A stretch of DNA of 24,194 bases from Nitrososphaerota archaeon (GCA_013378385.1 JACAFS010000010.1:1-24194); one strand, 5' to 3'. Positions 603-24,194 are shown, counted from the stretch's first letter. The notes: generated by a model not told the origin, from the sequence alone. Translations and numbers: made by a program.

Positions 603-677
603 ATCATGATTGTTATGATAACTCGATCCAAAGTTATTAGAGAATTAGATACTTAAGAATATTAGTATAAGAAATAA

Positions 678-3969: not shown

Positions 3970-3972
3970 AAT

Positions 3973-6759: not shown

Positions 6760-7631
6760 GTGAATTCTTCTAATAACTGCTTAGCAATACGTTTACCTGT
6801 ATCGAGTGGTTGATTTACCAATGGGCCGTCTTGTAAAGCAGGTTCGTCACCATCATAAGTAGGTTTGTCAGCTTTATAGAAAACACCAATAGGAATCTTT
6901 GATTCCCATTCATAAGATTTTGATATAGCTTGTTTTATATCATTAGTATCATGTTCCTCATCCTCTAATGTATAAACACGATCACGAAACCATTGATAAG
7001 TTTGGATTTTATTATAAGTAACACAAGGACTCATGACATCAACCAATGAGAATCCTTTGTGAGAAAGTGCATTTTCTATTGTAGTAGACAAGTGATCTGC
7101 ATTACCAGAAAAACCTCTTGATACATATGTAGCACCAGAAATAAGAGCAAGGGCAATAGGATTAACAGGTACTTCTAATAAACCAGAAGGAGTGGATTTG
7201 GTAAGCATGCCTCTGTCACTAGTAGGTGAAGCTTGGCCAGTAGTTAAACCGTAAATTTGATTATTCATAACGATATATGTAATGTTGATATTTCGACGCA
7301 TCGAATGAATAAAATGACCCAATCCAATTCCATATCCATCGCCATCGCCGCCAGTTGCAATAACAGTCAAGTCGGTATTAGCAAGTTTAATACCATTAGC
7401 GATAGGAAGAGAACGACCATGAAGTCCATGGAAGGCATAAGCATTTACAAAGCCTGGAAGATTTGAAGAACATCCGATGCCAGACGATATAACAACATTT
7501 TCTGATTTAATTTTTAGACGAGCAAGAGCAGTATGTACACCACGTAAAACAGCAAAATCTCCGCAGCCTGGGCACCAAGTAGGAGTAGTTTCAGTTTTAT
7601 ACGCTTCAAGTTTAACAGGTTCGACTACCAA
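6756..7631 (-). CDS. 2-oxoacid:ferredoxin oxidoreductase, beta subunit (TPP-binding)
   Basis: 291 aa with WCPGCGDF near the N-terminus and the GGDGDGYGIGLGHF TPP/Mg motif. The TTG start lies immediately after the stop of the alpha subunit. Confidence 0.9.
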   Translation of the reverse strand: MVVEPVKLEAYKTETTPTWCPGCGDFAVLRGVHTALARLKIKSENVVISSGIGCSSNLPGFVNAYAFHGLHGRSLPIANGIKLANTDLTVIATGGDGDGYGIGLGHFIHSMRRNINITYIVMNNQIYGLTTGQASPTSDRGMLTKSTPSGLLEVPVNPIALALISGATYVSRGFSGNADHLSTTIENALSHKGFSLVDVMSPCVTYNKIQTYQWFRDRVYTLEDEEHDTNDIKQAISKSYEWESKIPIGVFYKADKPTYDGDEPALQDGPLVNQPLDTGKRIAKQLLEEFT

Positions 7632-9365: not shown

Positions 9366-9391
9366 ATCCTAAGATAATTGCAAGATGTATA

Positions 9392-9649
9392 TTATTTAAC
9401 CTTACGAATTAAAAATTTAAGTAATTTATCGTCTTTATTAAAGGAAAGCAATTCATTTTCTGACTTTTTTATCCATGATTTGATGTCTTCTTCAGCTACT
9501 GGGTCGTCTGCAAATACTTCGAGAATTTCGTCAATATTCATTTCTTTAATAGTTTGTCTTGTTCTAAAAACCGGTTCAGGGCAAAGTAGTCCCTGCATAT
9601 CAATAGTTTTATCAGGTTTAATAGAAGAATCTTCTTGCGACATAAACAA
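9392..9649 (-). CDS. TusA/SirA-family sulfur-carrier-like protein
   Basis: 85 aa with IDMQGLLCPEPV (the CPxP active-site motif) followed by ...LEVFADDPVAEEDIKSW, the TusA-type pattern. Confidence 0.8.
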   Translation of the reverse strand: MFMSQEDSSIKPDKTIDMQGLLCPEPVFRTRQTIKEMNIDEILEVFADDPVAEEDIKSWIKKSENELLSFNKDDKLLKFLIRKVK

Positions 9650-9724
9650 TTTCTCTCACTCTTCAATAAATAGTTATTTAGTGTTACATATATCATACAA
9701 GAAGACTAGGAAAAAGGATAGAAT

Positions 9725-11056
9725 TTGAGCTTTAGATTACCAAGAGGAATGAGAGACATAGAAGAAAACGAATATGCCAAAATTGAGAAGGTAAGAAATG
9801 CATTCAATGAGACATGTAGAATATTTGGTTTTAAAAGATTCATGCCATCCCCAATAGAGATGCTTTCAACTTTAGAAGCAAAGAGTGGACCGGGAATAAA
9901 AGAGGAAATCTATCATTTTAAAGACAAGAAAGAAAGGGATCTAGGTTTAAGATTTGATCTAACTGTAGGAATAACGCGTCATATAACGGGGAAAAAAGAT
10001 TTACGAAGACCATTTAGAGTAGGTACTTTTGGAGACATGTTCAGATATGATGAACCGCAAAAAGGGAGATATAGATGGTTCCACCAATGGAATGCAGAAA
10101 TTTATTATACTATAAAAGATAATCCAAGCAATCATGTTCTAGAACTGCTCAAGTTTTCAACATCATTATTTGATAAGATTGGAATAAAAAATTTTGAAAT
10201 AAGATTGGGACATAGAGAGGTAGCAGAAAGTTTTGTTAATGCATTATTATATGGTAAGTTAGAACAACCAGAGAGTAACAAACAACAAGAAGTAACTACA
10301 ATATTGAGATTACTAGACAAGATTGAGAAAAAAACAGAAAAACAAATAGTGGATGAAGCAATTGAACTTGGATTAAAAGAAGAGAAAGCAAAGACATTAG
10401 TGAAATTTGGAAAGATTAAATCTAGTAATATAAATACACTGAAACAAGAATATGTATCAGTATTACAAGAAATAGGAATGATAGATAGGGATATAGAAGA
10501 AACATCCGACGTGATTAAAAATTATTTCAAATTATTTGAATCAAAAATAAAGAATATAGAATTCGATTTGGGGTTAGTGAGAGGCATGGATTATTATGAT
10601 GGTTATGTGTTTGAGATCGTGGATTTAAACAATAAAGAAATTGGTTCTATAGCAGGAGGAGGTGAATATACTCGTTTGATTAAGAGTTTTTCAGGTCCTG
10701 ATAATTTGTCAGCAATAGGAATAGCAGGAGGTATAGAAAGAACAATGGAATCAATAGATGAGAATCAAGAAAAGACAAATAATCTGATATCGATAATATC
10801 ATTGTTAGAAGAAGGGGCAGAGGATTTAATCGATATATTACGTGACAGCAATATACCTACGACATATAGACAATTAGATAATGAGGATATTAAGAAAGGT
10901 CTGAAGTTTGCCGCAGTCAATAATGCAAATATTGCAATAATAATTGGAAAAAATGAACTTGCGGATGGAAAATATCGAGTTAAGGACATGAAAACAGGGA
11001 AAGAAGAACTTGTTAAGAAAGAAAGTGTCGTCGACTTCATTAAAGAATTAATATAA
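9725..11056 (+). CDS. hisS: Histidyl-tRNA synthetase (class IIa) with C-terminal anticodon-binding domain
   Basis: 443 aa. It has LPRGMRD, LRFDLTVGITR (archaeal/eukaryal HisRS type), motif 2 MFRYDEPQKGRYRWFHQ, the HisA motif VRGMDYYDG, and a C-terminal ...IAIIIGKNELADGKYRVKDMKTGKEE. A TTG start at 9725 is required to retain the conserved PRGMRD N-terminus. Confidence 0.85.
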   Translation: MSFRLPRGMRDIEENEYAKIEKVRNAFNETCRIFGFKRFMPSPIEMLSTLEAKSGPGIKEEIYHFKDKKERDLGLRFDLTVGITRHITGKKDLRRPFRVGTFGDMFRYDEPQKGRYRWFHQWNAEIYYTIKDNPSNHVLELLKFSTSLFDKIGIKNFEIRLGHREVAESFVNALLYGKLEQPESNKQQEVTTILRLLDKIEKKTEKQIVDEAIELGLKEEKAKTLVKFGKIKSSNINTLKQEYVSVLQEIGMIDRDIEETSDVIKNYFKLFESKIKNIEFDLGLVRGMDYYDGYVFEIVDLNNKEIGSIAGGGEYTRLIKSFSGPDNLSAIGIAGGIERTMESIDENQEKTNNLISIISLLEEGAEDLIDILRDSNIPTTYRQLDNEDIKKGLKFAAVNNANIAIIIGKNELADGKYRVKDMKTGKEELVKKESVVDFIKELI

Positions 11057-11077
11057 TTATAGTGTAGAAATATATCA

Positions 11078-14000
11078 ATGAGAAGTATCTTAATTTGTTG
11101 TTTAGCAGTTGTTATTACTTTATTTTTAATTCCGACTGCTTTTGCTGAAGATGTAGACGATAGCAATAATTTTGATATCAATATAAAGACAGTAGATAAT
11201 ACAGCGACAATTACAGAGATTGCAATTCCTAAGGGTAATAACAAAACAATTAGAATAGATTTACCCAAACAGAACTCTGCATTCAATGGAACTGTGACTC
11301 TTGAAATCGAGGGAAATCCTACTGGATTGAGTACTTCTTTTACTTCAACTTCAATAACCGGCTGGCAAGGAACTACTGGGAAAAATTCTACTTTAACTTT
11401 TGCACCACAACTTTCGGCAACGCCTGGCAGTTATCAGATAACAATCAAGGCAATAAATAGCAACAATGCAACAGATTATGCGCAAAGGACAATAACATTA
11501 TATATTTCAGATTTTGAAATTACAGCTTCGCCTTCGACTGTTTCGGTATTTCCAGGTGGACAAGCGGATGTAACTCTAACAGTAAGTTCAGTGTCTGATA
11601 CAAAATTTTCGGGCGATGTGCAATTATTATCTGCGTCTATGTCAGGAGCAACTATAACATACGTGGATGATGTCGTAAATGTTCCAGAGAACGGAGCGGC
11701 ATATGCAACGGTAAGGATAACAGCAGATAGCAATGCGCAATCAAATGGAGATGGAGTATCTGTTATTATTAAAGCAAAAATTGGTGATCGTGAACGTCCA
11801 GTGACGATAATTGTAAAGATAGAATCAAATCCATTGTCGTTAGGTTTAGCAGTTAGTCCCAATCCTGCAATTGTTTTTCAACCTACATTTATAACAGCTA
11901 CAATTACTGACGCATCTGGTAATCCAGTAAATGGAGCATCAGTAACATTCAATCGAATGGCTGGAAATGGAACGTTTGCGGATGGTGGAACATTTACAAC
12001 TCTCACAACAAGTTCGGATGGAAAGATTTCTGCGGCTTTTACTCCGAAAACAAAGGAAACTCTTTCAATTCGAGTCTCAGCAGAAAAGACCAATTATCTC
12101 TCTGGTGATGAGATAATACAGATAGCCGTAAAAGGTGGTTTTGTAATGTCTGTCACGCCTGCACAAGAGCAAATTAATGCAGGTGACTCAAAAGCAGTAA
12201 CATTAACGATTACATCTACAGATGGATTCAGTTCGCCAGTAGAACTGTCTTATGAGGATGTAATATCGGGATTTACAGTATCATTCTCAGAAGTTAGTCT
12301 CATACCTGAAGCAAATGGAGCATTATCTACTACAGTTACAATATTTGTTTCAGACAATGTTCAATCAGGTGATGCAATAATTGTAATAAAAGGAAGATCA
12401 GGTGGATTAACTGCAGATGTATCTGTAGGAATCAATGTCCCTAAAGCAGAATTTACTTTATCTATTAGTGAATCACAAAATGAGATCACTACTTGGCAAG
12501 GAGATATTGTAAAAATAGACATGGTATTAATATCCATAGGAGGTTTTGATGGTACTGTACAACTAAGTACCAATATAGATGACAAACCAAATATGGATAT
12601 TGAATTTTCACCAAGTTCTGTTTCATTGAGTAGTGGAGAATCAAAACAAGTTTCTTTGCTTATAACAACAACGTCAGCAACAGAACCTATAGATAGATTA
12701 CCGGTTATTATTACAGCAACGTCGTTAACTTCTGAAACTACAACAACAGCATGGTTACAGATATTAGAACTATTCGAGATTGTGATTGATTCAAACAGCA
12801 GAAATGATGGAAGCAGGATAGCAACAATAGTGATCGATGGTGTAATAACACAACCAGAACAACTTCCTATCACGAAATATTTGAAGGAAAATAGTGAATT
12901 AACTGTAAAAATTACACAAGACATTATTGATGAAACAGAAGGAACAAGGTATGTTTTTACGGGATGGAATGATCAAACGAATACTTTAGAAAAAACTATA
13001 GAAATTAATTCGCCATTAACGGTGATTGCAGAATTTGATAAACAACATTACATAAACATCAGGTCAACTCCATTAGGAAGCATGATTGGTTTACTAGACA
13101 TAGAAGGTTCAGGTTGGCATAAAGAGAATGCATTAATTGAATTGAATACTGACGATATACTAGTCGTAACAGAAGATGAATCTAGATATAGATTTGATAA
13201 ATGGAGTGGTTCAATTGAATCAAATGACAGGAATATAGAATTATTAGTTGATGGGCCAAAATTAATTTATGCAGATTACATTTTACAATATAGAATAATA
13301 AAAATAATTGAACCGTCTTTTATTGCAGATATAATAACAACATTTAATGAACAATGGATAGATAGTGGAACAGAACTGTTACTTGAAACAACAAAGAAAG
13401 CTGACGAATATGGATTCATGCAATGGACAATAACAGGAAGCAGTTTCGATATAACAAGGACTACTAATCCTACAACTATCACCGTTAATGAACCATTAAC
13501 TATTAGAATTCAGTACGATTTGCTTCCAATGGTGAATATTGAATCAGTAAGAATGGCAGATAATGGATTTGAAGGAGAAGGTTCACAGATATGGGTAGAA
13601 TTATTGAATACAGAACTAAGAGGAGGATATGTGATAATAAAAACTTCAACAAGCATTAATGGATTAATAATAGGACCTGATCAACAAGAAATATACCTTG
13701 CTCCAGGAGAGAGCAAGTTATTTGCAATTACTATGAATTATACTAAAGCCGGTAGTGGTTCAATAGACATTACATTAGAGAAAACCGGAAGTCAGGACAA
13801 TAAGTTTAAGAAAGAGTTTAAGATTTTCACTCTGAATGATAAAAGAGAAATAACAAATATAGGGATAGCATTAAGTTCGAAATATTTACAGCAAATTGAT
13901 CAGTGGATGATTCCAAATGAGAAAGTAAAGATTTGTTCATCAGAGATCTTAGAACAATCAAGAGTCGGAGAAGATGAATCAGAATTACAGAAGGCTAAAG

Positions 14001-15493
14001 TAATATTACAATTTGTATCAAATAAAATACAAATATCAACCGATGTTCCAATGAGTGCACCAATGATGATAGAAGATTTTGGAATAATTGGATGTATTAA
14101 TACTGAAGAAAAGATAAATGGTGATTCTAGAACTTATCAGATTCTAATGGGAAGTTTGTTAAGATCAATAGATGTAGAAGTAAGGCCGGTAATTGGAGTG
14201 ATGGGAATTTCTGGAGATAATAACCAAGCTAGTGCTTTAATAAATACATGGATTGAGGCAAAATTAGATGACCAATGGGTTGTCATTGATCCCATAAACA
14301 ATGTCATAGAGACTGAAATTGTAAGACCAATAAATGTAGAGGAAGGCAAATCCTATAGACAAAGATATTCAGATATTCCTGAAAACGGAGGAATATTGTC
14401 AGCCATGATTTATGATTGTATATCTATTTGTAATGTAGATGTATCGGACGAGTATAGAGGTACAGAATCGCCAACAAAACTTGGCTCAATCTTATTTGTA
14501 GATGGAGATGTTGAGATAGAAGTAAGGGATTCAAATGGGAATTTCATTGCAAATGGAACATTGAGCAATTTCAAATGGTTTGATAAAGATGTGCCTTTGA
14601 ACAATAATAGGCAAATTAAGTTAATTTTGTTATCTGAGGGTGTAGATTTAGAATACATAATAATGAGAATCAATGGAGAATTAGGAGAAGAATTTGAAAT
14701 CAATGGAATGCGAGTAATTAATTTTGAACCGCAAACAAAGTCAATTAAATCTGCATTAATTTCAAAGACTTCATCTGACTTTAAATTAGTAGCACTGGGA
14801 GAAGATTTCATAATTGCGGAATTCGACGTACTAGAGTTCGATAAGCAACAGATTGAATTTTTATCAACTTCGTCAGTAGTAGAACATTTAGAACAAAACA
14901 GATTAAATGCAATTCGTATAACAACAATTAGTCATTCAGATATTGATGAATTAATCATACTGAAATTTTCAGATGGGATACTTTCAGAGATGGAATCCAA
15001 ATCATCAAGTATTGTTGCGATCATTAATGGAATAGAATCTCCAGTAGAGATAATTGATGATGGAGTAGTAATAACAATCATAATAGATGACCTGCAGAAT
15101 CAAAATGAGAATGTAATAACATTATACTTCGCTTCGTATACTATGAATTTTGAGCTGAGAGACCCACTAAATCAGATAATTAGAAACGCGGATATAACCA
15201 TGATAGGGGAATTTATGAATAGGACACAAACAAGTAACGAAGGAATGTTTACTAGACTAATTCCAGGAAACTATGATTTTATTGTAGAATATCGAGGAGA
15301 ACAAGAAATTATTTCCAAGAGAATTACGAATGATGATGTAGATATAGAGATCAATCTTTATCGTTCAGACTCGATGGTAATATTCTTTATAGCAATTATA
15401 TTTACAGTGATTCTAGTTGTAGCATATAGTATAGAAAAAGCGTTTGCAAGAATTTTACCGGAATATATCAACAAGAATACTGATTCATTTTAA
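11078..15493 (+). CDS. Giant multi-domain cell-surface protein (signal peptide, Ig-like/CARDB-like repeats, Big_1-like domain, InlB-B-repeat-like modules, degenerate transglutaminase-like domain, CarboxypepD_reg-like domain, C-terminal TM anchor)
   Basis: 1471 aa. The signal peptide is MRSILICCLAVVITLFLIPTAFA|ED. Repeated about 100-aa beta-sandwich modules carry the recurring pattern F.I(S).P....(V/I)..G....V.L(T)(V/I).S. The Big_1-like segment reads ITATITDASGNPVNGASVTFN. RYVFTGWND and YRFDKWSG modules are present. The TGase-like core is described in a separate feature. The C-terminus reads LRDPLNQIIRNADITM...LIPGNYDFIVEY, followed by the TM helix MVIFFIAIIFTVILVVAYSI. Confidence 0.8.
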   Translation: MRSILICCLAVVITLFLIPTAFAEDVDDSNNFDINIKTVDNTATITEIAIPKGNNKTIRIDLPKQNSAFNGTVTLEIEGNPTGLSTSFTSTSITGWQGTTGKNSTLTFAPQLSATPGSYQITIKAINSNNATDYAQRTITLYISDFEITASPSTVSVFPGGQADVTLTVSSVSDTKFSGDVQLLSASMSGATITYVDDVVNVPENGAAYATVRITADSNAQSNGDGVSVIIKAKIGDRERPVTIIVKIESNPLSLGLAVSPNPAIVFQPTFITATITDASGNPVNGASVTFNRMAGNGTFADGGTFTTLTTSSDGKISAAFTPKTKETLSIRVSAEKTNYLSGDEIIQIAVKGGFVMSVTPAQEQINAGDSKAVTLTITSTDGFSSPVELSYEDVISGFTVSFSEVSLIPEANGALSTTVTIFVSDNVQSGDAIIVIKGRSGGLTADVSVGINVPKAEFTLSISESQNEITTWQGDIVKIDMVLISIGGFDGTVQLSTNIDDKPNMDIEFSPSSVSLSSGESKQVSLLITTTSATEPIDRLPVIITATSLTSETTTTAWLQILELFEIVIDSNSRNDGSRIATIVIDGVITQPEQLPITKYLKENSELTVKITQDIIDETEGTRYVFTGWNDQTNTLEKTIEINSPLTVIAEFDKQHYINIRSTPLGSMIGLLDIEGSGWHKENALIELNTDDILVVTEDESRYRFDKWSGSIESNDRNIELLVDGPKLIYADYILQYRIIKIIEPSFIADIITTFNEQWIDSGTELLLETTKKADEYGFMQWTITGSSFDITRTTNPTTITVNEPLTIRIQYDLLPMVNIESVRMADNGFEGEGSQIWVELLNTELRGGYVIIKTSTSINGLIIGPDQQEIYLAPGESKLFAITMNYTKAGSGSIDITLEKTGSQDNKFKKEFKIFTLNDKREITNIGIALSSKYLQQIDQWMIPNEKVKICSSEILEQSRVGEDESELQKAKVILQFVSNKIQISTDVPMSAPMMIEDFGIIGCINTEEKINGDSRTYQILMGSLLRSIDVEVRPVIGVMGISGDNNQASALINTWIEAKLDDQWVVIDPINNVIETEIVRPINVEEGKSYRQRYSDIPENGGILSAMIYDCISICNVDVSDEYRGTESPTKLGSILFVDGDVEIEVRDSNGNFIANGTLSNFKWFDKDVPLNNNRQIKLILLSEGVDLEYIIMRINGELGEEFEINGMRVINFEPQTKSIKSALISKTSSDFKLVALGEDFIIAEFDVLEFDKQQIEFLSTSSVVEHLEQNRLNAIRITTISHSDIDELIILKFSDGILSEMESKSSSIVAIINGIESPVEIIDDGVVITIIIDDLQNQNENVITLYFASYTMNFELRDPLNQIIRNADITMIGEFMNRTQTSNEGMFTRLIPGNYDFIVEYRGEQEIISKRITNDDVDIEINLYRSDSMVIFFIAIIFTVILVVAYSIEKAFARILPEYINKNTDSF
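14120..14290 (+). other. Transglutaminase-like (papain-fold) core domain with all-but-Asp of the Cys-His-Asp triad substituted
   Basis: GDSRTYQILMGSLLRSIDVEVRPVIGV aligns to the TGase-core consensus G.C..FA.L...LLRA.GIPAR.V.GY, with Ser in place of the catalytic Cys. NTWIEAKLDDQWVVIDP aligns to HAW.EVY..G.GW..FDP, with Asn in place of His and the Asp retained. The spacing is S-39-N-15-D. Confidence 0.6.
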
Positions 15494-16824
15494 TTAGATT
15501 TTAACAACTTATTGAGGTTTCGATCGTATGTAGTGATTGTATTCTCAAGTTTTTTAAGGTCGTCTTCACTAATTTGGAATTCATTCCACAAATCAAGTTC
15601 TCTAATATATTCTTTAAAACGATCATAACCAGGTTTAACTGTTTCAACGATGTTTTCTAATTTAGCACCGCCAAGAAGTAATAATACGTCCAATCTATCA
15701 GAATTCTCTTTAACAGGAACAATTTGAATCAAAGATTCTTTCAAGGAAGGGAAACGTTTTCGATTCCAGGCATTATAATCATCTTCTAGACGCTTAGCAG
15801 ATACAGTATTAAGAACAGATTCAGGAACACGAATAACAACAATACTCAATATGATAGATTCGTACTGGAAGGGAGAAAGCGGAAAATATGCTGCATCATC
15901 TAGTATATTTTTTAAATTGTCATAAATTTCATAACTTCGACCATAAACATAAACCGGTGAGAAAGCTAGAACTTTGAGAGACTTTGCCATTTTGCCAAGA
16001 CTATTTATTGCATGTCCATTACTAGTTAACAAACTAAGAATTCGTGGAACTAAAATTTCGTATCCTAATTTTTTACCTGAACGATCTATTCCAATCATTT
16101 TGCTAAGTGCATTACCTTGTAAAACAATAAGCATATCTCCCGAAGTCTTTTGATTTTTTACTAAACGAGAAATGCCGCAATACGCATTGAATTGTACTTG
16201 ATCAGTATCATTATTAGATGGGAGAGAAGCAAGAACTATTCGTGAAGATTTAGGATTAATGTGTTTAATCTTTTTGATTAAGGGAAGGGTGAGTCCTGAA
16301 ACTAGTGTTTCTCCGATTGACCCAGTAATAATAGCAGTCTGTTCGTCAATATTATTATTAATACCAACCCGACGAATTTTATCTTCAAATTTATCAAATT
16401 CAGAAAAGGTATTTTCGAATTCACTCCAAGTATTGATATTAGAATCATAATCTTCATCGATTAGATAATAATTAGGATCATTAGAAGTAGATTCAGTTGA
16501 ATAAGAAGAATTTTTTTCAGAATCAATAAAATCAACTAATAAATGATTTAATCGTTCAGGATGAACAGAATTTTTAAATGAAAGAAGCGTCTGTGAGCCA
16601 AAATCCCCAATACCAAAATTAATTACTTTATGGAGATTTTTGACTTTGACTGAATTAAGATTATCGATCAAAAGTGAAAGTTCTTTTTTAAAATTTATTA
16701 AAGGAAGATTACAAGTTGCACATTCTTCTAAACCACGAACATTCTTGTGACCATCAGGGCATAAAATAAAAGAATTATAAGAAAGTTTTCTAGATGTAGG
16801 ACGAGTCATTACAATGTATATCAT
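15490..16824 (-). CDS. Uncharacterised protein: N-terminal zinc-ribbon (C-x3-H-x8-C-x2-C) plus a divergent FtsZ/tubulin-like core with degenerate nucleotide-binding motifs
   Basis: 444 aa. The zinc-ribbon segment is CPDGHKNVRGLEECATC. VINFGIGDFGSQTLLSF aligns to the FtsZ G1 box (IkViGvGGgGsNavnrM). AIITGSIGETLVSGLTLPLIKKIK aligns to the T4 segment vFvTaGmGGGTGTGaaPviAeiAK, but GGGTGTG is replaced by GSIGETLVSG. IVLASLPSNND...NAYCGISRL...DMLIVLQGNAL aligns to vaVVTkPFsFEG...A..Gi.eL...DtlIviPNdrL. The T7-equivalent is GHAINSLGKMAKSL and lacks the acidic residues of NxDxxD. The call is by-eye alignment only. The ORF itself is well supported by its length and lack of overlap. Confidence 0.55.
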   Translation of the reverse strand: MIYIVMTRPTSRKLSYNSFILCPDGHKNVRGLEECATCNLPLINFKKELSLLIDNLNSVKVKNLHKVINFGIGDFGSQTLLSFKNSVHPERLNHLLVDFIDSEKNSSYSTESTSNDPNYYLIDEDYDSNINTWSEFENTFSEFDKFEDKIRRVGINNNIDEQTAIITGSIGETLVSGLTLPLIKKIKHINPKSSRIVLASLPSNNDTDQVQFNAYCGISRLVKNQKTSGDMLIVLQGNALSKMIGIDRSGKKLGYEILVPRILSLLTSNGHAINSLGKMAKSLKVLAFSPVYVYGRSYEIYDNLKNILDDAAYFPLSPFQYESIILSIVVIRVPESVLNTVSAKRLEDDYNAWNRKRFPSLKESLIQIVPVKENSDRLDVLLLLGGAKLENIVETVKPGYDRFKEYIRELDLWNEFQISEDDLKKLENTITTYDRNLNKLLKSN

Positions 16825-16893: not shown

Positions 16894-17874
16894 ATGAAAC
16901 GACAAGACAAAGATATTGAATATAAATCCGTAATACTAGAACAAAGTAACAAGAATGTAAAAGGTCGTTTAATAATAACAGGAAATAAAATTTTATTTCA
17001 GAAAAAAGTGGGTTTAATATCAAAAAAATATGAAACTGAATTTCATACAATAATTGAATCAATAAATAAAATCGAAAAAGAAGGTTATTCGAAAATTTTA
17101 ATTACAGATAAAGAAAAAAATATTACAGTAAAATTTATTTTAGATACGCCAGTTGAGGCGAATGAAATTAGTGATAAGATTAATGATACAATAAATCAAT
17201 TAATTCTCGATACTGAAGAAGAGAAGAAGGATGAAATAGATCAGAGAATCAATCTAGCAAATTATTCAACCTATGTGTATGATATTACATTAGAATTATG
17301 GACTACAATTAGTTTGTTATTCATGATTATGAAAGAAACAATAGACAATAATTGGGATGAAGTTGATATAAAGGTGGAAGAATTCAAAGAGATAGTAGCA
17401 GAATTAGATAATAATAAAGTGAATATCAATGGTGATGCAAAAAATATCATAACGTCAATTAAAAGTAGAGATGATTTAACAATAGTGAATTCAATCAGAG
17501 TGTTGATAAAAACATTAGGCGAGTCTTTACAAGGTCCTGTACCATATAGTGAATGGAAAGAAATCAGTTCATCCATGAAACCAAGTTGGGAGAATTTACA
17601 ATTTTTTTATCTCTTTACGGTTGCAATATTTGAATCGTATTATTTTGAGAACATGAACATGGATGAAGAAAGGAAATCATCGAAAGCAAATGTAATTAAA
17701 TACATTCCAATAGTTAATGGACATTTTTCAGATCAGTTATTTGACAAAACAAAATATTCGACAAAAACACTTAGAGAAAGAAACGATACAATTGAGCAAT
17801 TAATAGATGAAACTACTGATAAATTGCAAGAGTTGTTAAAAGATTCTTTGAAGAAAGTAAGTTTGTTAAATTAG
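16894..17874 (+). CDS. Uncharacterised soluble protein: N-terminal PH/GRAM-like beta-sandwich (about residues 10-95) plus an acidic linker and a C-terminal all-helical domain
   Basis: 326 aa. SVILEQSNKNVKGRLIITGNKILFQKK....ETEFHTIIESINKIEKEGYSKILITDKEKNITVKFIL resembles bacterial/archaeal PH (bPH/GRAM) domains (G.L.iT..ri.F....... followed by beta strands and a terminal helix EANEISDKINDTINQLI). The remainder is helical and Glu/Lys/Asp-rich. The fold assignment is tentative. Confidence 0.45.
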   Translation: MKRQDKDIEYKSVILEQSNKNVKGRLIITGNKILFQKKVGLISKKYETEFHTIIESINKIEKEGYSKILITDKEKNITVKFILDTPVEANEISDKINDTINQLILDTEEEKKDEIDQRINLANYSTYVYDITLELWTTISLLFMIMKETIDNNWDEVDIKVEEFKEIVAELDNNKVNINGDAKNIITSIKSRDDLTIVNSIRVLIKTLGESLQGPVPYSEWKEISSSMKPSWENLQFFYLFTVAIFESYYFENMNMDEERKSSKANVIKYIPIVNGHFSDQLFDKTKYSTKTLRERNDTIEQLIDETTDKLQELLKDSLKKVSLLN

Positions 17875-17876
17875 TG

Positions 17877-20240
17877 TTATTTATTTTTCAACAATGTATT
17901 TTTAGATGTATTGAAGGTAACCGTGGATTTACCATAAGCAAATAGTTGTAAGTACTGTACTGCGTATTTACTCCTTACAGGCAATTGCCTAGGAATAACT
18001 TTTCCTTCGATACTAATTAATGAAGAGATTAACGGTTCAATATTAACATAATTTAAGATAAATTCATTCATAATGAGGTATTTCTTGAGTGTAGTGGCTT
18101 CATTTTCAATAATTTTTATACCATATTCGATATTCGATAATCTATCAGACAAATCAGTTTGTGCCTGATCGTCAAGTCGTCTGAGAGAAGATTCGATTTC
18201 AGAAATCAGTTGTGTGTCCTTACCCCATTGAAAATCTAAAGGAACACGTGTATCATTACGTTTTTCAAATTCTCTCAATAATCGTAATAATTCGCCAATA
18301 ACAGTATGTGTACCTGTTTCAAGAAATTGTAACATAGACATAACATCAGGCAGATATAGAATTCCAGTAAAGGTAGAAAGTTGTTCATAATTAATCTGAA
18401 TCTGTTTAGCAACATCAATAGTTTCAATGTCGGTTGGGGTTTGACCCAGAGATTCATTCAATGGAATTATGTTATATTCGTGCATTTTTAATGAACGTTC
18501 AATTAAACGTTTAAGATTTGTAATTGTTTTTTGCATTACTTGATTATAGCGTTTATGAAGAGATGCAATTGTAATAAGAAGAGTATCTAGAGCTTGTGAG
18601 CCTTTTCCTTGTAGAATGAAGTTTTCACTAATAGAAATAGAAGTGAATTCTAGTGTGGGGTCAAATTCTTTTTGCACAACAGTAACAAGACTTTCTGCAA
18701 CACGAATAGTATTTTGAGATACCTCAAGAAAATAGTCGTTCAATTCACGTTGATTATTTAAGACGTCGTCAAATGTAAGATCAGAACTATAAGATAAATG
18801 GTCAGAGTTTATAGATGGAAGATTAGCAATACCAAGTTTTTCAAGCTTAGTTAGCATATCTTGACATTTATCAAGTTGATCGTTATGGTAATTGATGACC
18901 TTAAGTTCTAATGAATCATTTCCAGATAGTTGAGAATCAGAGAAAACGCGAATTTTCTCAGATTTTTCTTTGAGTCCTGAATATGAGAGCGTATATAATC
19001 CATCAAGAGTAATAGAAAGTTCTTCTTTGAATTCGCCAAGCGAGGTTATTGAATTACTAATATCAATACCAGGACATATTTCCTGAATTTCCTCTAGTTG
19101 TGAACCAGAATCATCAATACTACTGAGATAATTGTTGCATTGTTCTTTGACTAATTCAGTAAGTTCAGCACCTTTTGATCTTCTAGAGAGATTAATAGAG
19201 GACAATGACATTGCAACACCAATTGTACCCGCAGCAAGAATAGATTTGAATGAATCAGATGAATTAAAACCAGTAGAATAGTCAAAAGGGATTTGCATGG
19301 CTTGTAAAGGAACAATAAAGAATAGTGTGCCAGCAATAAGAGTAATTACATAAGAATAACTGGGCAATATACTTAATTCAATACCGCGTTCGTCCATCCA
19401 CGGCCATAGTTTATCTAGAATAGATATAAAAGAAAGAGACAAAATCATAAGGATTGGAATAAATAACAAAACAAGATTATCGATTAGAACAAACAAATAT
19501 GAATTAAAGAGGTTATTTTGTAGAGAAAGGAAACCGGAAAGAGATTCACTAAGAGCAAATTCATTGAAAGACAACAACCTAGGACTAGTTTCATAAACAA
19601 TTTGTGAGAACATAGGCATAGTAGAATCAGATATAAGAGAATAGATTACCTGTGGCCTAGTATTTGGATTAATTGATAATATTTCAGCTAATCCAAGTGC
19701 ATTAAATGGAATAAACATAATTAGGAATGAAAATAAAAGTCCAATATTTTTTGAGAGATTATCAGTTTTTTTAATTATTGCATAAACAAGCATAAGAGGT
19801 ATTGAAACAAAATAATATGGAGTCAAGAATAAAGTTCCAGCAGTTAAACCAAATATTAGAGTGAAGATATTATCTGGGTCATTTAATGCTTTAGCAATAA
19901 AGACGCCAACAACGAAGAAACTAAGTAATAACCACCAGAAAGGTATTGATGTCTGATAAAGATAAGCAGGAATAAACAGAATAAATGAGATCAGAAATCC
20001 GGAAGTTATTGACCTGAATCCAATAAAAGCAGAAAGAATTGAAATAAGAAATACAATAGGAATTGGATATAATGGAACAGTGTATAGAATAATTAAACTA
20101 AATAAGAAGATTGAACTAGCAAATAGAATCTTTTTTAGATTTTTACGATATTGTTGTTCTCGTTCAATAGCATTATCGATATCAGAAGATGGTCGGAATC
20201 CAACTTTATCAATTACAGAAGAATTGATTAATTTAGACAA
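17877..20240 (-). CDS. Uncharacterised polytopic membrane protein (about 9-11 TM helices, residues about 37-350) with an approximately 430-aa C-terminal cytoplasmic helical domain
   Basis: 787 aa. Hydrophobic segments include ILFASSIFLFSLIILYTV, IPIVFLISILSAFIGF, GFLISFILFIPAYLY, FWWLLLSFFVVGVFIA, IFTLIFGLTAGTLFL, YYFVSIPLMLVYAII, IGLLFSFLIMFIPFNALGLA, YLFVLIDNLVLLFIPILMILSLSFISIL, YVITLIAGTLFFIVPL and ILAAGTIGVAMSLSSI. I recognise no family motif in the C-terminal half. It lies 25 nt downstream of the 900-aa gene on the same strand. Confidence 0.75.
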   Translation of the reverse strand: MSKLINSSVIDKVGFRPSSDIDNAIEREQQYRKNLKKILFASSIFLFSLIILYTVPLYPIPIVFLISILSAFIGFRSITSGFLISFILFIPAYLYQTSIPFWWLLLSFFVVGVFIAKALNDPDNIFTLIFGLTAGTLFLTPYYFVSIPLMLVYAIIKKTDNLSKNIGLLFSFLIMFIPFNALGLAEILSINPNTRPQVIYSLISDSTMPMFSQIVYETSPRLLSFNEFALSESLSGFLSLQNNLFNSYLFVLIDNLVLLFIPILMILSLSFISILDKLWPWMDERGIELSILPSYSYVITLIAGTLFFIVPLQAMQIPFDYSTGFNSSDSFKSILAAGTIGVAMSLSSINLSRRSKGAELTELVKEQCNNYLSSIDDSGSQLEEIQEICPGIDISNSITSLGEFKEELSITLDGLYTLSYSGLKEKSEKIRVFSDSQLSGNDSLELKVINYHNDQLDKCQDMLTKLEKLGIANLPSINSDHLSYSSDLTFDDVLNNQRELNDYFLEVSQNTIRVAESLVTVVQKEFDPTLEFTSISISENFILQGKGSQALDTLLITIASLHKRYNQVMQKTITNLKRLIERSLKMHEYNIIPLNESLGQTPTDIETIDVAKQIQINYEQLSTFTGILYLPDVMSMLQFLETGTHTVIGELLRLLREFEKRNDTRVPLDFQWGKDTQLISEIESSLRRLDDQAQTDLSDRLSNIEYGIKIIENEATTLKKYLIMNEFILNYVNIEPLISSLISIEGKVIPRQLPVRSKYAVQYLQLFAYGKSTVTFNTSKNTLLKNK

Positions 20241-20265: not shown

Positions 20266-22968
20266 TTATGAACTGGTATCCTCAATCCGTTTAGTGCTTT
20301 TAAGTTCATGATCAGGAGATACATGAACGCCTTGTTCTAATAAATAGGAATGAGATAGGAGTCTTTCTCCTTGAGTAGTTTGATTATACAGGATATCCAT
20401 TTCCTTGAATGTTTCGAGATCTTTGACACTAGCTTTTGCAGCAATAATTAGAAATCTCATAGTCCAAGGATCAGTTGAATCGACTTCGCGTATGTAAATA
20501 CTTTTGGAAGCGTCTTGTTTTACATAACCAGACAACATAGTTTTAGCTTCGGAATCAAGGTCTTTATCCCATAAACCACGAGGGCTTACTACGGTGAACC
20601 ATAGATAATCAGTTCGGTATTCAGCAGTTAGACCCATTGTAGCAGGAATTCTGAATATACCAAGGGCGCCAGAGAGATATTCCTTAAGATGTTGTCTATC
20701 AATAATTTCGTTGAGCATATTCTCTTGTGTAAGAGACGCTTCATCTTCCAGAAGTATACGTTGCATAATTTTTAGTTGCTCGCCTTCGGTTAATTCCGCA
20801 ACACGATCATAATAACCACGATCTCGCATAGACTCATTCATTTTCTCGTAATAAGTATTTTGAAGAGTTGAAGCTTCAGTTAATAATTTTCTATATGAAG
20901 ATGCTACTTCAAATTTTCTTTCAATGTTTTGATATGCAGAAAGTTTTGACTGGATAGTTTTACGTTCTTCAGTAATCGCAGTGAGTTGAGAATCTATAAT
21001 ATTTAATTCATGTTCGAGATCTGATGCTTTACCTTGCATATACTTCTTTTTTGGACCTAAGAATCCAAATCTAATTTTCTTTGCTTGTCCACCGACTCTA
21101 CCTTTTTCTTGTTCACGACTGCGTTTTTTAATTGTAAGGTTTTCTTCTTCAACTTTTAGTTCCTCTGTTCTTTCGGTTGTTAGTCTTTTCATAACTTGAC
21201 AATCGCCGAGCCGTGCGTCGAGAGTCTTAACTTCAGTTTCAACAGGAGACAGTAAAGAAGACAGAAGTGCAAAGTTTATGACAAGTTCAGGATTACTAAT
21301 TCGTTCTACTGCAATTTGCATTCGTTTATGTAATTCAGTTTTTTCTGATTTGGCAAGTGTTTTATTAAGTTTATCCGCAAGATTACTGATATTAAGATAT
21401 AATTGTAAACCAGTAAGGTATTGATCAATAAGTTCAACTAGATTAATAGTATCGGTAATAATTTGATTTTGTCTTGGAGTAAGTTTTTGAGCACTAGGCA
21501 ATGTGTTGCGTAAGTCTTCGGTTAATTGCTTAACTTTATCTTGTAAAGTATTATAGTTTTGAGATAAGTTACTACTAAGAGATACTAATTCTTCGGATAG
21601 AGTTCTTATCCTAGCTTCTACAGTACCATCTGCAGCATCCAATCCTATTGATAAAACGGATTTGGATAAGTCATTTACTAAAGTACGGGTAGCAGTTTCT
21701 GCTCCACGAATATGCATGAGTAATTCGGCATCCATAGAAACCCCCTCTCCAAGGAAGCTTTGGACGTTTTCTTCAAATCTTGATTCTTCATAGGTATTTT
21801 TCTCGATAGAGAGACCTCGATATACGGCTTTTAATTCATCGTACGATGAATTCATTACATCGATAAGTCCTTTAGATTGTTCATTTCCTGAGTAAATTTC
21901 TAATTTTTCTTTTCTTAGTTCACGTAAACGGTCTAATTTATCAAGATATATTTTAGTGAGTTCAATAAATTCAGCAACTGGATAAGAAACTTTCAGTGTA
22001 GAAATTACATTGACCCATTTTCCTCCCAAATCTACATTAGAACCAATATTACTGAATAAATCTGCCAAGTCAAAATTCAAAGATTTCATCAATATATCAA
22101 CTATAGCCTCATCGACTAACTTACGAGCGTCAAGTACACTTCCAGTTCTACTATAAGCAGGACCAAGAGACATCATAAGAAAAGCCGTAAACGGATTTTT
22201 ATATGGTTCTCCATAAGTGCTAACAACATTATGATTTAGAGATCGATCAATAGCATATTCATGTTCAAGAAGAGAAGAATAACAAGAAGCTCCTTTAGCA
22301 GGAGGGTCGTCGCCACTACAAGGAAGAATAGCTAATCCAATAATTGGTATTCCACTGCCTATTTTTTTTCTCAAATGTCTTGCAAAGTCTAATGCAGTAC
22401 CACTACCTGAACCGCCACCAAGGCCATAAACCAAAAATATAATTGGCTGAATAGTAGCCGTAAAGACATGTTCTTTAAATTTATCCATATAACCGTCGAC
22501 AAGTTTGAGATGATGATAATTCAATCCATAAATTGCTTTAGATAAAGCGCGTTTTCTTCCAACTCCTCCAGCAAGCGGAGGAATTTCCATAGACGAAGAG
22601 AGCCAAGGTGTGTACTGTTCAGGTACAACTGCACCTTCACGTTCAAGAAAATCTGGATATGCTTTAATAAAATCAAACATTGATTCCGGAGTAGGGAATT
22701 TCATAGTTTTACTTTCAAGATGTATTTTATCAGTAGGAATTCCATTGGTTTTTAGAGTCTCAGATAGATTCTTGTAAGCCATATCAAGACTACGTATATC
22801 ATGATCTGCAACATCTAATGCAAGCAGTGAAATTTTAATCCCGTCGATTTTCAGGAGAGGGAGTAAATTATCGTGATTTTGTACAAATGATTCAATTACA
22901 TTTGCTCCTGTGCCTCCTAAGCCAACAATTTGTATAGAACTAGTATAATCTGCAGCCAAAGCAATCAC
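20266..22968 (-). CDS. Large FtsZ/tubulin-superfamily GTPase (N-terminal about 330 aa) fused to an approximately 450-aa coiled-coil region, a basic patch and a C-terminal globular domain
   Basis: 900 aa. The G1 box is IQIVGLGGTGANVIESF (nt 22906-22923). The T3-like segment is AGGVGRKRALSKA. The T4 tubulin signature is IIFLVYGLGGGSGSGTALDFARHL (GGGSGSG, nt 22399-22419). IIGLAILPCSGDD is equivalent to the FtsZ VVTKPFsFEG strand. The T7-like segment SLNFDLADL matches NxDxxD. Residues about 335-760 are heptad-rich and Glu/Lys/Leu-rich. The basic segment is KKRSREQEKGRVGGQAKKIRFGFLGPKKKYMQGK (nt 21028-21129). The GTG start overlaps the upstream stop by 1 nt. Confidence 0.8.
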   Translation of the reverse strand: MIALAADYTSSIQIVGLGGTGANVIESFVQNHDNLLPLLKIDGIKISLLALDVADHDIRSLDMAYKNLSETLKTNGIPTDKIHLESKTMKFPTPESMFDFIKAYPDFLEREGAVVPEQYTPWLSSSMEIPPLAGGVGRKRALSKAIYGLNYHHLKLVDGYMDKFKEHVFTATIQPIIFLVYGLGGGSGSGTALDFARHLRKKIGSGIPIIGLAILPCSGDDPPAKGASCYSSLLEHEYAIDRSLNHNVVSTYGEPYKNPFTAFLMMSLGPAYSRTGSVLDARKLVDEAIVDILMKSLNFDLADLFSNIGSNVDLGGKWVNVISTLKVSYPVAEFIELTKIYLDKLDRLRELRKEKLEIYSGNEQSKGLIDVMNSSYDELKAVYRGLSIEKNTYEESRFEENVQSFLGEGVSMDAELLMHIRGAETATRTLVNDLSKSVLSIGLDAADGTVEARIRTLSEELVSLSSNLSQNYNTLQDKVKQLTEDLRNTLPSAQKLTPRQNQIITDTINLVELIDQYLTGLQLYLNISNLADKLNKTLAKSEKTELHKRMQIAVERISNPELVINFALLSSLLSPVETEVKTLDARLGDCQVMKRLTTERTEELKVEEENLTIKKRSREQEKGRVGGQAKKIRFGFLGPKKKYMQGKASDLEHELNIIDSQLTAITEERKTIQSKLSAYQNIERKFEVASSYRKLLTEASTLQNTYYEKMNESMRDRGYYDRVAELTEGEQLKIMQRILLEDEASLTQENMLNEIIDRQHLKEYLSGALGIFRIPATMGLTAEYRTDYLWFTVVSPRGLWDKDLDSEAKTMLSGYVKQDASKSIYIREVDSTDPWTMRFLIIAAKASVKDLETFKEMDILYNQTTQGERLLSHSYLLEQGVHVSPDHELKSTKRIEDTSS
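22399..22419 (-). other. Tubulin/FtsZ signature motif (GGGSGSG) of the 900-aa protein
   Basis: The reverse complement of 22399-22419 is ggtggcggttcaggtagtggt, which translates to G G G S G S G. This is one conservative change from the canonical GGGTG(T/S)G. Confidence 0.8.
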
Positions 22969-23897
22969 TATACTAATTCTTTAAGCTCCCTTTTAATTGT
23001 TTCAAGGTCGTCAGATAGAGATTTATCAATTCGAGATGCTTTAATTAGTAAAAGATCTAATTTGTCTGCTTTTTCAGAAACACTTGAAGACAGATAAGAA
23101 CTAGAAGATCTAGTTCGGATAAATAATAAAGCAAATGCAATAGTTGTAATACCAAATATAACACTTGCAATAATAAATAATGTAGTTGTACTAGGTGGAG
23201 CAGGATAATCTGAGTCAGGAATGGTGTTAAGAAGTTTTATTGCATCGTCATATAATCCAAAAGTAGTAAGATATTCCGCTTCTGAAACTATTTCAAGAGC
23301 TAAAGAATTATATTTTCCTTCCATAGATATTGAATCTAGTTTTTCTAATTTAGATTGTAAAAGTGCATCATAAGAAATAATTGTTTGATCAGTAATCGTA
23401 TATGTGCGTTCGTCAAGAATTTCCATAGAATCAAGAGACATCACGAGTATAGGAACAAGTTCAAGAGCATGAACGGTTTTATCCATATCAACTACATCTT
23501 TTTCAGTTATTGATTCAGGAATTTTTCCATCTAAAGTAAATTGAGCAGTTCCTTCAACTGCTTGAAATACGATTGATTGAGAACCAGGAGTCCAGACAGA
23601 AGTATCAACGCCTTGGTAATTATTATTAAGAGTCCAAAAAGAATTTCCAGACTTTTCCATACTGGTTGTTAATAAAATATTATCAGATAATGTAGCACCA
23701 ATTTCTATTTCAAAATGTATAGTATAAGCGCCACCGGCAACAAGAAATTCATCAGTGACATCATTACCATTTGGATCAAGAACAGTGAAATTTGTCAGGA
23801 CAGCGGGTGCTTGAGAATAAGAGATAGGTAAAAGAATCGCTGAAAGAAATATAGAAATAATCAAAATACTGAATTTATAATTAGTCATTAAGTGCAT
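22968..23897 (-). CDS. Uncharacterised type-I membrane protein: cleavable signal peptide, approximately 200-aa extracellular beta-rich plus helical ectodomain, single TM, approximately 50-aa cytoplasmic helical tail
   Basis: 309 aa. The signal peptide is MHLMTNYKFSILIISIFLSAILLPISYSQA|PAV. A PAPPSTTT linker precedes the TM helix LFIIASVIFGITTIAFALLFI, followed by RTRSSSS (positive-inside). The tail contains ...KADKLDLLLIKASRIDKSLSDDLETIKRELKELV. Its stop TAG (22970-22968) overlaps the GTG start of the 900-aa gene (TAGTG). Confidence 0.7.
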   Translation of the reverse strand: MHLMTNYKFSILIISIFLSAILLPISYSQAPAVLTNFTVLDPNGNDVTDEFLVAGGAYTIHFEIEIGATLSDNILLTTSMEKSGNSFWTLNNNYQGVDTSVWTPGSQSIVFQAVEGTAQFTLDGKIPESITEKDVVDMDKTVHALELVPILVMSLDSMEILDERTYTITDQTIISYDALLQSKLEKLDSISMEGKYNSLALEIVSEAEYLTTFGLYDDAIKLLNTIPDSDYPAPPSTTTLFIIASVIFGITTIAFALLFIRTRSSSSYLSSSVSEKADKLDLLLIKASRIDKSLSDDLETIKRELKELV

Positions 23898-23966: not shown

Positions 23967-24194
23967 TTAATTAGAAGAAAATGCCTCGCTAATTGCAGAG
24001 TTTACATCATTGGCAATAAAAAAAGCGTCAGAGGCGATTTGAGATTTAGAATTAATCAATAAATCAACCACACCACCAGTATTCGCTAGAAGAATAACTT
24101 TTTTATTAAGATTCATAGCCATCGAAAGTTCAGACAGAGTGCCCCAACTTCCAGCAATTCCTATCACAACGTCAGCCATACTTACAACAAAGAA
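23967..24194 (-). CDS. LOG / TIGR00725-family Rossmann-fold protein (lysine-decarboxylase-like), C-terminal part; the 5' end lies beyond the window
   Basis: The frame is open upstream of the track's Met to the window edge (FFVVSMADVV...). ADVVIGIAGSWGTLSELSMAMNLNKKVILL matches the conserved aD.vIaigGG.GTLsEia.A...gKpVi.l segment of LOG/TIGR00725 proteins. Confidence 0.6.
   Translation of the reverse strand, partial: FFVVSMADVVIGIAGSWGTLSELSMAMNLNKKVILLANTGGVVDLLINSKSQIASDAFFIANDVNSAISEAFSSN

Follow-up and report, generated by a model that had tools for sequence, protein, structure and literature searches.

What kind of protein carries the glycine-rich loops of tubulin and FtsZ at the front of a chain of 900 amino acids (aa), and with which partners might it act? 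The question is raised by a gene at positions 20266-22968 of a 24,194-nucleotide stretch of DNA from a Nitrososphaerota archaeon (GCA_013378385.1, JACAFS010000010.1:1-24194), the whole of which is termed the window here. The protein is almost certainly a highly divergent member of the FtsZl1 branch (Pfam Tubulin_2) of the tubulin/FtsZ superfamily. Its gene is the second in a five-gene cassette, on or beside the same strand, that also holds a further tubulin-like gene along with three conserved partners; this is the most informative part of the context, and it was missed in the preliminary description of the locus, which was made from the DNA alone. We place the probability of our best explanation as a whole, FtsZl1 within this cassette together with the mechanism set out below, at roughly 0.55.

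The gene is a single open reading frame (ORF) of 900 codons on the minus strand, with a GTG start that shares one nucleotide with the TAG stop of the upstream membrane-protein gene (TAGTG); the plus-strand frame across the same interval holds stops only. The preliminary description gave the interval correctly and left the strand unstated, and every peptide that it quoted lies at the residue numbers it named. Guanine-cytosine content of the window is 33%. The protein is real, well past what coincidence could produce: its homologues number 428 in a collection of 5.8 billion proteins, many of them full-length (∼900 aa, scores of 640-1900 bits). The window as a whole matches contigs from metagenome-assembled genomes (MAGs) of marine Nitrososphaerales ("Thaumarchaeota") with 78-96% protein identity. 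In NCBI records, homologues are already labeled "tubulin-like domain-containing protein." Conservation of motifs was counted in an alignment of 51 sequences, reaching down to 36% identity.

Family membership is established by the Pfam Tubulin_2 profile (PF13809), which matches residues 14-217 (model positions 2-207 of 356) at 36.3 bits, against a gathering score of 27 (E = 5e-9). A precomputed match to the same profile is carried by nearly all homologues, among the matches listed. The protein is not a canonical FtsZ, as the NCBIfam ftsZ equivalog (TIGR00065) reaches 17.8 bits, far short of its cut-off at 295.2; nor was membership of the CetZ, TubZ or artubulin groups indicated, the Pfam Tubulin profile scoring below its gathering score, and Pfam detected no FtsZ_C or Tubulin_C domain in the 900-aa protein. 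By sequence, a profile search of the PDB reached the T4 region of CetZ and FtsZ only (best match CetZ 4b46, E = 4.8e-4), and yielded no close relative with a solved structure. An AlphaFold2 model built on 51 homologues has a mean predicted local distance difference test score (pLDDT) of 89.6 and a predicted template modeling score (pTM) of 0.77. Comparison of the whole model with the PDB in Foldseek gave 80 matches at E ≤ 1e-3, and each of the top 50 is a chain of FtsZ, tubulin, BtubA, TubZ or Odin/Asgard tubulin (E = 1e-5 to 5e-4, probability 1.0, identity 12-15%, target TM-score 0.33-0.50). Placement in the tubulin/FtsZ superfamily, as proposed in the preliminary description, is thus upheld by both the above-threshold profile match and the fold comparison.

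The FtsZl1 family was described in 2010 by Makarova and Koonin, with Huta_2051, MA2711 and PAB1257 among its examples, and in their neighborhood table the proteins range from ∼730 to 1130 aa (PMC2875224). The present protein resembles them in its FtsZ-like GTP-binding domain with a GGGxGSG T4 loop, its helical or coiled-coil middle and its distinct C-terminal domain. This layout coincides exactly with the published one, which makes the protein a further member of a family already known, and the earlier guess at FtsZl1 membership, then offered as unverifiable, proves correct on both the Tubulin_2 match and the layout (PMC2875224). The contrast in size and layout with FtsZ and CetZ that the preliminary description drew understates that such an architecture has been known since 2010. 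There are also differences from the published family. The H7, T7 and H8 elements are identifiable here, while the 2010 study was unable to align FtsZl1 past H5 (PMC2875224); the C-terminal domain, published as "mostly alpha-helical," is mixed alpha/beta in this protein; and Nitrososphaerota, Methanomethylicota and Dehalococcoidia are not in the 2010 family list. Later surveys have used the Tubulin_2 group as an outgroup only (PMC9871819), and in the literature searched we found no experimental work on any FtsZl1 protein, sixteen years after the family was described.

The motifs expected of a superfamily member are present in the head (Table 1): a T1 loop of the form GxGxxG, a T4 loop that reads GGGSGSG in place of GGGTG(S/T)G, and a T7 loop of the NxDxxD/E type following H7. 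The T1 and T4 loops are intact, as had been claimed, with glycines invariant in all 51 sequences, and T4 was aligned with GGGTGSG of CetZ/FtsZ in the PDB profile search and with GGGTGTG of Escherichia coli FtsZ by hhalign. We infer that the segment AGGVGRKRA is the T3 loop; its local pLDDT of 62 is as expected for a flexible loop. At the T7-like motif, F299 and D300 are kept in 51/51 sequences, and position 303 is D in 45, E in four and N in two (D/E in 49/51). In the AlphaFold2 model, as read by DSSP, the motif is flanked by helix 278-296, of 19 residues, and by the short helix 301-308, and on this model helix 278-296, NFDLAD and helix 301-308 form the predicted H7-T7-H8 arrangement. By hhalign, the family profile places residues 175-338 onto residues 96-255 of E. 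coli FtsZ (E = 5.5e-4), with N298, D300 and D303 falling on FtsZ N207, D209 and D212. The T7 assignment, already made in the preliminary description, therefore holds on the combined grounds of motif conservation, placement between the H7 and H8 equivalents and alignment with the FtsZ T7 loop, and for this clade it extends the 2010 analysis that had stopped at H5.

The region that follows the head is, as had been supposed, helical, confidently so and not disordered, with limits of 331-713 rather than 335-760; additional helices continue to about residue 778. Two hairpins stand out in the model. In the first, a loop of five residues connects helix 450-492 to helix 498-540; in the second and longest, which would extend for ∼8 nm, three residues (632-634) connect helix 576-631 to helix 635-686. 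Helices of 43-56 residues on loops of 3-5 residues must fold back as antiparallel hairpins, and the high pTM of the monomer suggests a stalk formed within one molecule, not a 50-nm rod. A significant heptad periodicity is seen in three helices only (635-686, z = 4.9; 450-492, z = 3.2; 368-389, z = 3.2), by a simple test that is blind to the distinction between intermolecular and intramolecular coiled coils. Across the 51 sequences the stalk is the least conserved region, with 27-47% identity compared with 46-73% for the head.

The strongly basic segment with aromatic and hydrophobic residues, which the preliminary description had treated as an interruption of the helices, has the composition it was credited with; its position is not random, for it forms the turn of the longest hairpin. 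In the 51 homologues the net charge of this tip averages +3.7 per ∼20 residues, compared with -0.2 elsewhere in the stalk, and the tip contains 2-8 hydrophobic or aromatic residues, usually followed by G/P-K-K-K. The sequence of the tip is poorly conserved; its cationic and hydrophobic character is conserved family-wide, and the tip is kept in two homologues in which the hairpin is much shortened.

The final globular region is indeed an alpha/beta domain, of ∼186 aa (715-900) rather than the 130 aa first estimated. W790, P796, W800 and W835 are invariant, and the peptide DYLWFTVV... quoted earlier lies at residues 787-803. Identity across the family is 39-73% in this domain, near that of the head and well above that of the stalk, and when modeled in isolation the domain has a pLDDT of 86.2. 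All Foldseek matches of the domain to the PDB are weak (E ≥ 0.009). Around 20 of the top 50 (E = 0.04-0.2) are CetZ, TubZ, FtsZ or tubulin chains, and others are RusA, IspF, SelD, HypE and RNase E; a library of viral folds gave weak RusA-like matches only. We take RusA, IspF, SelD, HypE and RNase E to share the SCOP "Bacillus chorismate mutase-like" fold class, to which the C-terminal domain of tubulin also belongs. By sequence, there was no Pfam match to the domain at E ≤ 10, and none by hhalign against E. coli FtsZ or by PDB profile search. The order of elements, S7 (319-328), stalk, then beta-alpha-beta-beta (789-846), matches the FtsZ order S7-[H9]-S8-H10-S9-S10, so the stalk may be an insertion within a tubulin-type C-terminal domain, which would then be split in two.

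Synteny was compared in close relatives (L001-L007) and in six distant loci: a freshwater Nitrososphaerota contig (L008), a Dehalococcoidia MAG (L009), a Bathyarchaeia locus (L010), a contig with bacterial-type flanking genes (L011), an archaeal contig (L012) and a Methanomethylicota contig (L013). Homologues of the 309-, 787- and 444-aa proteins of the cassette flank FtsZl1 in five of the six distant loci (L008, L009, L011, L012 and L013), and the cassette is thus present in Nitrososphaerota, Methanomethylicota, another archaeon and Dehalococcoidia. The 309-aa homologues lie directly upstream of FtsZl1 in these five (E = 4e-22 to 2e-82), the 787-aa gene is likewise kept beside FtsZl1 in five distant loci (E = 2e-16 to 1e-107), and the 326-aa protein has homologues in L008, L009 and L011 (E = 2e-8 to 5e-21), with genes of 302-310 aa at the equivalent position in L012 and L013. 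By hydropathy, the C-terminal half of the 787-aa protein is without hydrophobic segments. None of the 309-, 787- and 326-aa partners has a sequence match in Pfam, NCBIfam or the PDB. Between archaeon and Dehalococcoidia, FtsZl1 is 53% identical compared with 23-34% for its partners, making it the slowest-evolving gene of the cassette.

Among the Nitrososphaerota, the locus keeps stable surroundings at identities from 96% to as low as 61%; its flanks include a 1471-aa surface protein with immunoglobulin (Ig)-like and transglutaminase domains and a 2-oxoacid:ferredoxin oxidoreductase, and a histidyl-tRNA synthetase (HisRS) gene flanks the locus in the seven closest relatives (L001-L007). The 1471-aa protein adjoins the cassette in 8/8 Nitrososphaerota loci compared (L001-L008) and in 0/5 other loci, and is a possible envelope partner specific to this lineage. 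The 309-aa homologue of the Dehalococcoidia locus (9045-9998, plus strand) is called as two genes of 104 and 202 aa; as each half matches the window protein, a frameshift, a split gene or a fault in assembly is suspected. The Bathyarchaeia homologue (10001-12865, plus strand) is a 954-aa protein, 40% identical, whose gene adjoins an Orc1/Cdc6 gene.

With respect to the operons published for FtsZl1, the cassette is both similar and different. The euryarchaeal operon consists of A2 (a ∼290-aa membrane protein), FtsZl1, a membrane P-loop GTPase and A1, and the membrane-remodeling role proposed for the family was predicted from operons with vWA proteins, a diverged P-loop GTPase, OmpA-like proteins and kinases (PMC2875224). 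A small membrane-associated protein directly upstream of FtsZl1, as in the case of A2, is found here as well. The family-typical operon association is otherwise lacking: vWA, P-loop GTPase, OmpA-like and kinase domains were not found in the window or in the six distant loci, and no Walker A or conserved P-loop motif was found in any cassette protein. Instead of the published vWA, membrane P-loop GTPase, OmpA-like and kinase components, the cassette has the 787-aa polytopic membrane protein, the 326-aa protein and the second tubulin paralogue. The protein by itself adds a member to a known and annotated family; the cassette represents a new version of the FtsZl1 system.

The fifth gene of the cassette encodes a very divergent tubulin-superfamily protein. 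The 444-aa protein matches Pfam Tubulin under the cut-off (E = 7e-5); its Dehalococcoidia orthologue (P0182) scores 42.7 bits against the cut-off of 33 and has a canonical GGGTGSG, whereas T4 is degenerate (GSIGETLVSG) in the archaeal versions. All members of the family carry an N-terminal, zinc-ribbon-like motif (CPxGH...CxxC). Against the PDB, the family profile matches the Asgard tubulin AtubB2 (E = 2.6e-6), TubZ and BtubB. The gene is conserved in five distant loci, and the family is rare: an exhaustive profile search of 1.84 billion representatives gave 126 clusters at E ≤ 1e-3; ten of these clusters were looked up by name, and 10/10 are unnamed or "hypothetical protein." Alignment of the two tubulin-like families of the cassette by hhalign covers the S4-T4-S5 region only (E = 0.004), indicating that the 444-aa protein and FtsZl1 are very distant paralogues. 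In Nitrosopumilus maritimus, the "FtsZ" Nmar_1262 has the T4 sequence AGKAGSA and is non-polymerising (PMC3684127); no link between this protein and the 444-aa paralogue was established: word-indexed searches returned close relatives only, and the ten profile clusters looked up are unnamed or hypothetical.

The 900-aa protein shares with FtsZ, CetZ, TubZ, tubulin and BtubAB the nucleotide-binding fold, the glycine loops of T1 and T4, a core helix and the acidic pair of T7, and these features support an argument that it works like them, with GTP hydrolysis activated by assembly. It differs in having a helical region of ∼380 residues between S7 and the C-terminal domain, and in lacking the C-terminal peptide of the FtsA/ZipA/SepF type found in FtsZ. 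Under the proposed mechanism, guanosine triphosphate (GTP) would be bound by the head, and a head-to-tail longitudinal contact, either with another copy or with the second tubulin-like protein, would bring D300/D303 into the nucleotide site of the neighbor; hydrolysis would be assembly-dependent, as in FtsZ and tubulin. The stalk would project from the polymer with its basic and aromatic tip docked on the cytoplasmic face of the membrane, and the two membrane proteins would anchor or organize the assembly. This would be the role predicted for FtsZl1 in 2010, in a variant in which a tubulin paralogue replaces the P-loop GTPase and vWA protein. That the system acts as such a GTP-regulated, membrane-tethered scaffold for cytoskeletal or remodeling purposes has, in our estimate, about an even chance of being correct. 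Chromosomal stability and strong purifying selection argue for a cell-biological role, and in the Nitrososphaerota the adjacent giant surface protein hints at a connection to the envelope.

In dynamin and the bacterial dynamin-like protein BDLP, a GTPase head is followed by a long antiparallel stalk with a membrane-interacting tip. The 900-aa protein is analogous in architecture to these and to atlastin, with a GTPase head, an antiparallel helical stalk and a distal, candidate membrane-interacting tip. The analogy does not imply homology, as the head here has a tubulin fold rather than a P-loop (TRAFAC) fold, and no Walker A motif.

Several observations weigh against the best explanation. At the level of the profiles, the Tubulin_2 match takes in only the first ∼60% of the Pfam model, the 900-aa protein reaches 28.2 bits on Pfam Tubulin, where the cut-off is 33, and hhalign gives the alignment with FtsZ a probability of 30%; N298 of the NxDxxD motif is kept in just 23/51 sequences. 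The AlphaFold2 model, with structure read from DSSP, is of a monomer in the nucleotide-free state. Homology of the C-terminal domain to that of tubulin is drawn from weak fold matches (E ≥ 0.009), with negative sequence-profile tests, and the tip is a candidate membrane-interface loop by virtue of its composition alone. The Bathyarchaeia homologue has 0/4 of the cassette partners within 10 kb, so either the partnership is not universal or the partners are encoded elsewhere. Finally, in the literature searched, GTP binding, hydrolysis, polymerization and membrane binding have been shown for no FtsZl1 protein. On the other side, the profile match is significant, the head fold and T7 are modeled and the helical region is confidently helical, each the reverse of what the preliminary description had said would speak against it.

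The most direct alternative was proposed in the preliminary description, that the helices form a giant coiled coil that bundles or spaces filaments; in this version, an intermolecular, parallel, dimeric coiled coil would bundle or space FtsZ-like protofilaments, with the basic patch in the middle of the rod. An extended coiled coil was predicted with Marcoil for Huta_2051 (PMC2875224), and the heptad signal in helices 635-686 (z = 4.9) and 450-492 (z = 3.2) agrees with it; moreover, AlphaFold2 monomer models can fold true dimeric coiled coils back on themselves. However, the confident monomer model (pTM 0.77; pLDDT 85-95 over the helices) has short loops that force antiparallel hairpins, the basic patch lies exactly at a hairpin turn and several helices have no heptad signal, and we regard a bundling rod as unlikely. 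A second alternative draws the protein away from filaments altogether, as a GTPase switch that acts as a monomer or closed dimer, with itself or the 444-aa paralogue as activator, and moves its stalk at the membrane by a dynamin- or atlastin-like logic. Makarova and Koonin had allowed that FtsZl1 might not form filaments (PMC2875224). A non-polymerising switch would also suit the resemblance of head, stalk and candidate membrane tip to dynamin-like proteins, the tubulin-type C-terminal domain that is not established, and the degenerate T4 of the archaeal paralogue, which recalls a pair of active and inactive subunits. The T7-type acidic pair is nonetheless conserved, and to our knowledge this pair acts in trans across a longitudinal interface in all characterized members of the superfamily; the switch is accordingly rated as quite improbable.

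Immunity is the other role that has been predicted for proteins of this kind. Kaur, Burroughs, Iyer and Aravind (2020) described tubulin domains with C-terminal coiled coils in predicted GAP1-N2/DO-GTPase conflict systems, which also have vWA and HSP70 components and, in Firmicutes, two tubulin genes per locus (PMC7159879). A component of biological conflict would use nucleoside triphosphate-dependent assembly to set a threshold for, or to execute, a response to invaders, and the fusion of a tubulin domain to a coiled-coil or alpha-helical region and the pair of tubulin genes are features common to those loci and this one. The patchy distribution of the cassette, with 53% identity between archaea and Dehalococcoidia, suggests horizontal transfer and could be accommodated as well. 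The conflict loci are, however, defined by TRAFAC GTPases, vWA and FNIII domains and sometimes HSP70, none of which was found here; neither the cassette nor its relatives contain a P-loop GTPase, vWA, HSP70, FNIII or recognizable effector, and the second tubulin-like protein has a zinc-ribbon-like motif and no coiled coil. A search of PADLOC-DB v2, which covers known anti-phage defense systems, gave no match below E = 0.08 for the six proteins. The neighbors are housekeeping genes, the head and C-terminal domain are under strong purifying selection, and flanks that are stable among housekeeping genes from 96% to 61% identity are not those of a variable defense island. A conflict function is, in our judgment, rather improbable. 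Least credible, and very improbable indeed, is a DNA-segregation motor resembling TubZ, in which the basic patch would bind nucleic acid or a centromere-binding adaptor. TubZ chains do occur among the structural matches, and residues 614-642 have a net charge of +10; against this, the setting is chromosomal and housekeeping, with no TubR-like helix-turn-helix gene, repeats or plasmid or phage genes nearby, two of the conserved partners are membrane proteins, and a tip that exposes aromatic and aliphatic residues alongside basic ones is seen more typically at membrane interfaces.

No branch of the tubulin/FtsZ superfamily is more divergent than FtsZl1, and two incompatible predictions exist for it, membrane remodeling (2010) and biological conflict (2020). 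The subfamily described here is tractable for deciding between them, given the confident model, the D300/D303 pair available for T7 mutant controls and the discrete tip, and the compact five-gene partner set, free of the hallmarks of conflict systems, is a further aid. The sharing of the cassette by archaea and Dehalococcoidia could inform how cytoskeletal modules move between domains. As a bolder form of the membrane-scaffold explanation, one that we think doubtful, the cassette might encode a hitherto undescribed "two-tubulin" membrane machine of TACK archaea and wall-less Dehalococcoidia: a stalk of ∼400 residues would be inserted after S7 of a complete, two-domain tubulin/FtsZ fold and place its tip in the membrane, and the protein would pair with its degenerate paralogue in the manner of alpha- and beta-tubulin and dock on dedicated membrane proteins. 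If true, this would be a dynamin-like head-stalk-paddle device built on a tubulin GTPase, and it would shape or remodel the envelope of cells that use Cdv/ESCRT-III division or that lack peptidoglycan.

Table 1. Coordinates of the FtsZl1-family protein, its regions and motifs, and the neighboring genes (window positions; residue numbers are those of the 900-aa protein).
Feature	Position	Strand	Description
FtsZl1/Tubulin_2-family protein, 900 aa (cassette gene 2)	20266..22968	-	GTG start; Pfam PF13809, 36.3 bits; 428 homologues
Tubulin/FtsZ-fold nucleotide-binding domain with H7, T7, H8 and S7 (residues 11-330)	21979..22938	-	AlphaFold2 pLDDT mostly >90; Foldseek; hhalign
T1 / G-box IVGLGGTGANV (residues 14-24)	22897..22929	-	G16, G18 and G21 invariant in 51 sequences
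T3-like loop AGGVGRKRA (residues 133-141)	22546..22572	-	G134, G135, R138 and R140 invariant
T4 signature GLGGGSGSGTA (residues 182-192)	22393..22425	-	G184-G186 and G188 invariant
S5 strand and T5-like loop ILPCSGDD (residues 214-221)	22306..22329	-	P216, C217 and D220 invariant; D221 in 50/51
T7-like loop and start of H8, NFDLADL (residues 298-304)	22057..22077	-	Family pattern x-F-D-x-x-D/E
All-helical stalk (residues 331-713)	20830..21978	-	DSSP on AlphaFold2 model, pLDDT ∼85-95
Cationic/hydrophobic tip of longest hairpin, KKRSREQEKGRVGGQAKKIRFGFLGPKKK (residues 614-642)	21043..21129	-	Net charge +10; candidate membrane-binding loop
C-terminal alpha/beta domain (residues 715-900)	20269..20826	-	Beta-alpha-beta-beta core at 789-846
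Cassette gene 1, 309-aa protein	22968..23897	-	N-terminal signal/anchor, C-terminal transmembrane segment 242-260 and short cytoplasmic helical tail (hydropathy)
Cassette gene 3, 787-aa polytopic membrane protein	17877..20240	-	N-terminal half with at least six transmembrane segments; C-terminal half soluble (hydropathy)
Cassette gene 4, 326-aa soluble protein	16894..17874	+	Homologues in L008, L009 and L011 (E = 2e-8 to 5e-21)
Cassette gene 5, second, very divergent tubulin-superfamily protein	15490..16824	-	444-aa ORF, probably 439 aa from M6
1471-aa predicted surface protein	11078..15493	+	Signal peptide, Ig-like repeats (Big_1, Ig_VWA7), transglutaminase core and C-terminal transmembrane segment (Pfam, hydropathy)

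Other features of the window were observed in passing. Upstream of the cassette, a 70-aa ORF (23967-24179, minus strand) matches only the last third of the SLOG cluster4 (LDcluster4) family, at model positions 94-148 of 151; the ORF is conserved in the seven closest loci (L001-L007). At 525-581 (minus strand), Rfam recognizes the body of a tRNA at 36.5 bits, comprising a D arm, an anticodon arm (GGC, Ala), a T arm and, after these, the acceptor strand of the 3' side, CCGGTCCA. No complementary 5' strand adjoins it, and the site is not called as a tRNA by ARAGORN; a non-canonical intron near position 9/10 could divide a tRNA-Ala here (with a possible 5' exon near 621-629, minus strand), or the element could be the remnant of a tRNA. 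A compact cluster at 3064-6759 (plus strand) encodes lipoyl synthase, the E1-beta subunit of a 2-oxoacid dehydrogenase, an E2 lipoyl-acyltransferase and a lipoyl ligase or transferase of the LplA/LipB family (Pfam LplA-B_cat), with no E1-alpha gene in between. It is preceded by an acetolactate-synthase-like, thiamine pyrophosphate-dependent enzyme (1281-2978) and followed by both subunits of the 2-oxoacid:ferredoxin oxidoreductase (6756-9365, minus strand). ORFs of 173 and 187 aa (10765-11286 and 12361-12924, minus strand) run antisense to the HisRS and surface-protein genes; their predicted products are hydrophobic and of low complexity, and shadow ORFs, in a genome rich in AT, are the likeliest explanation for them.

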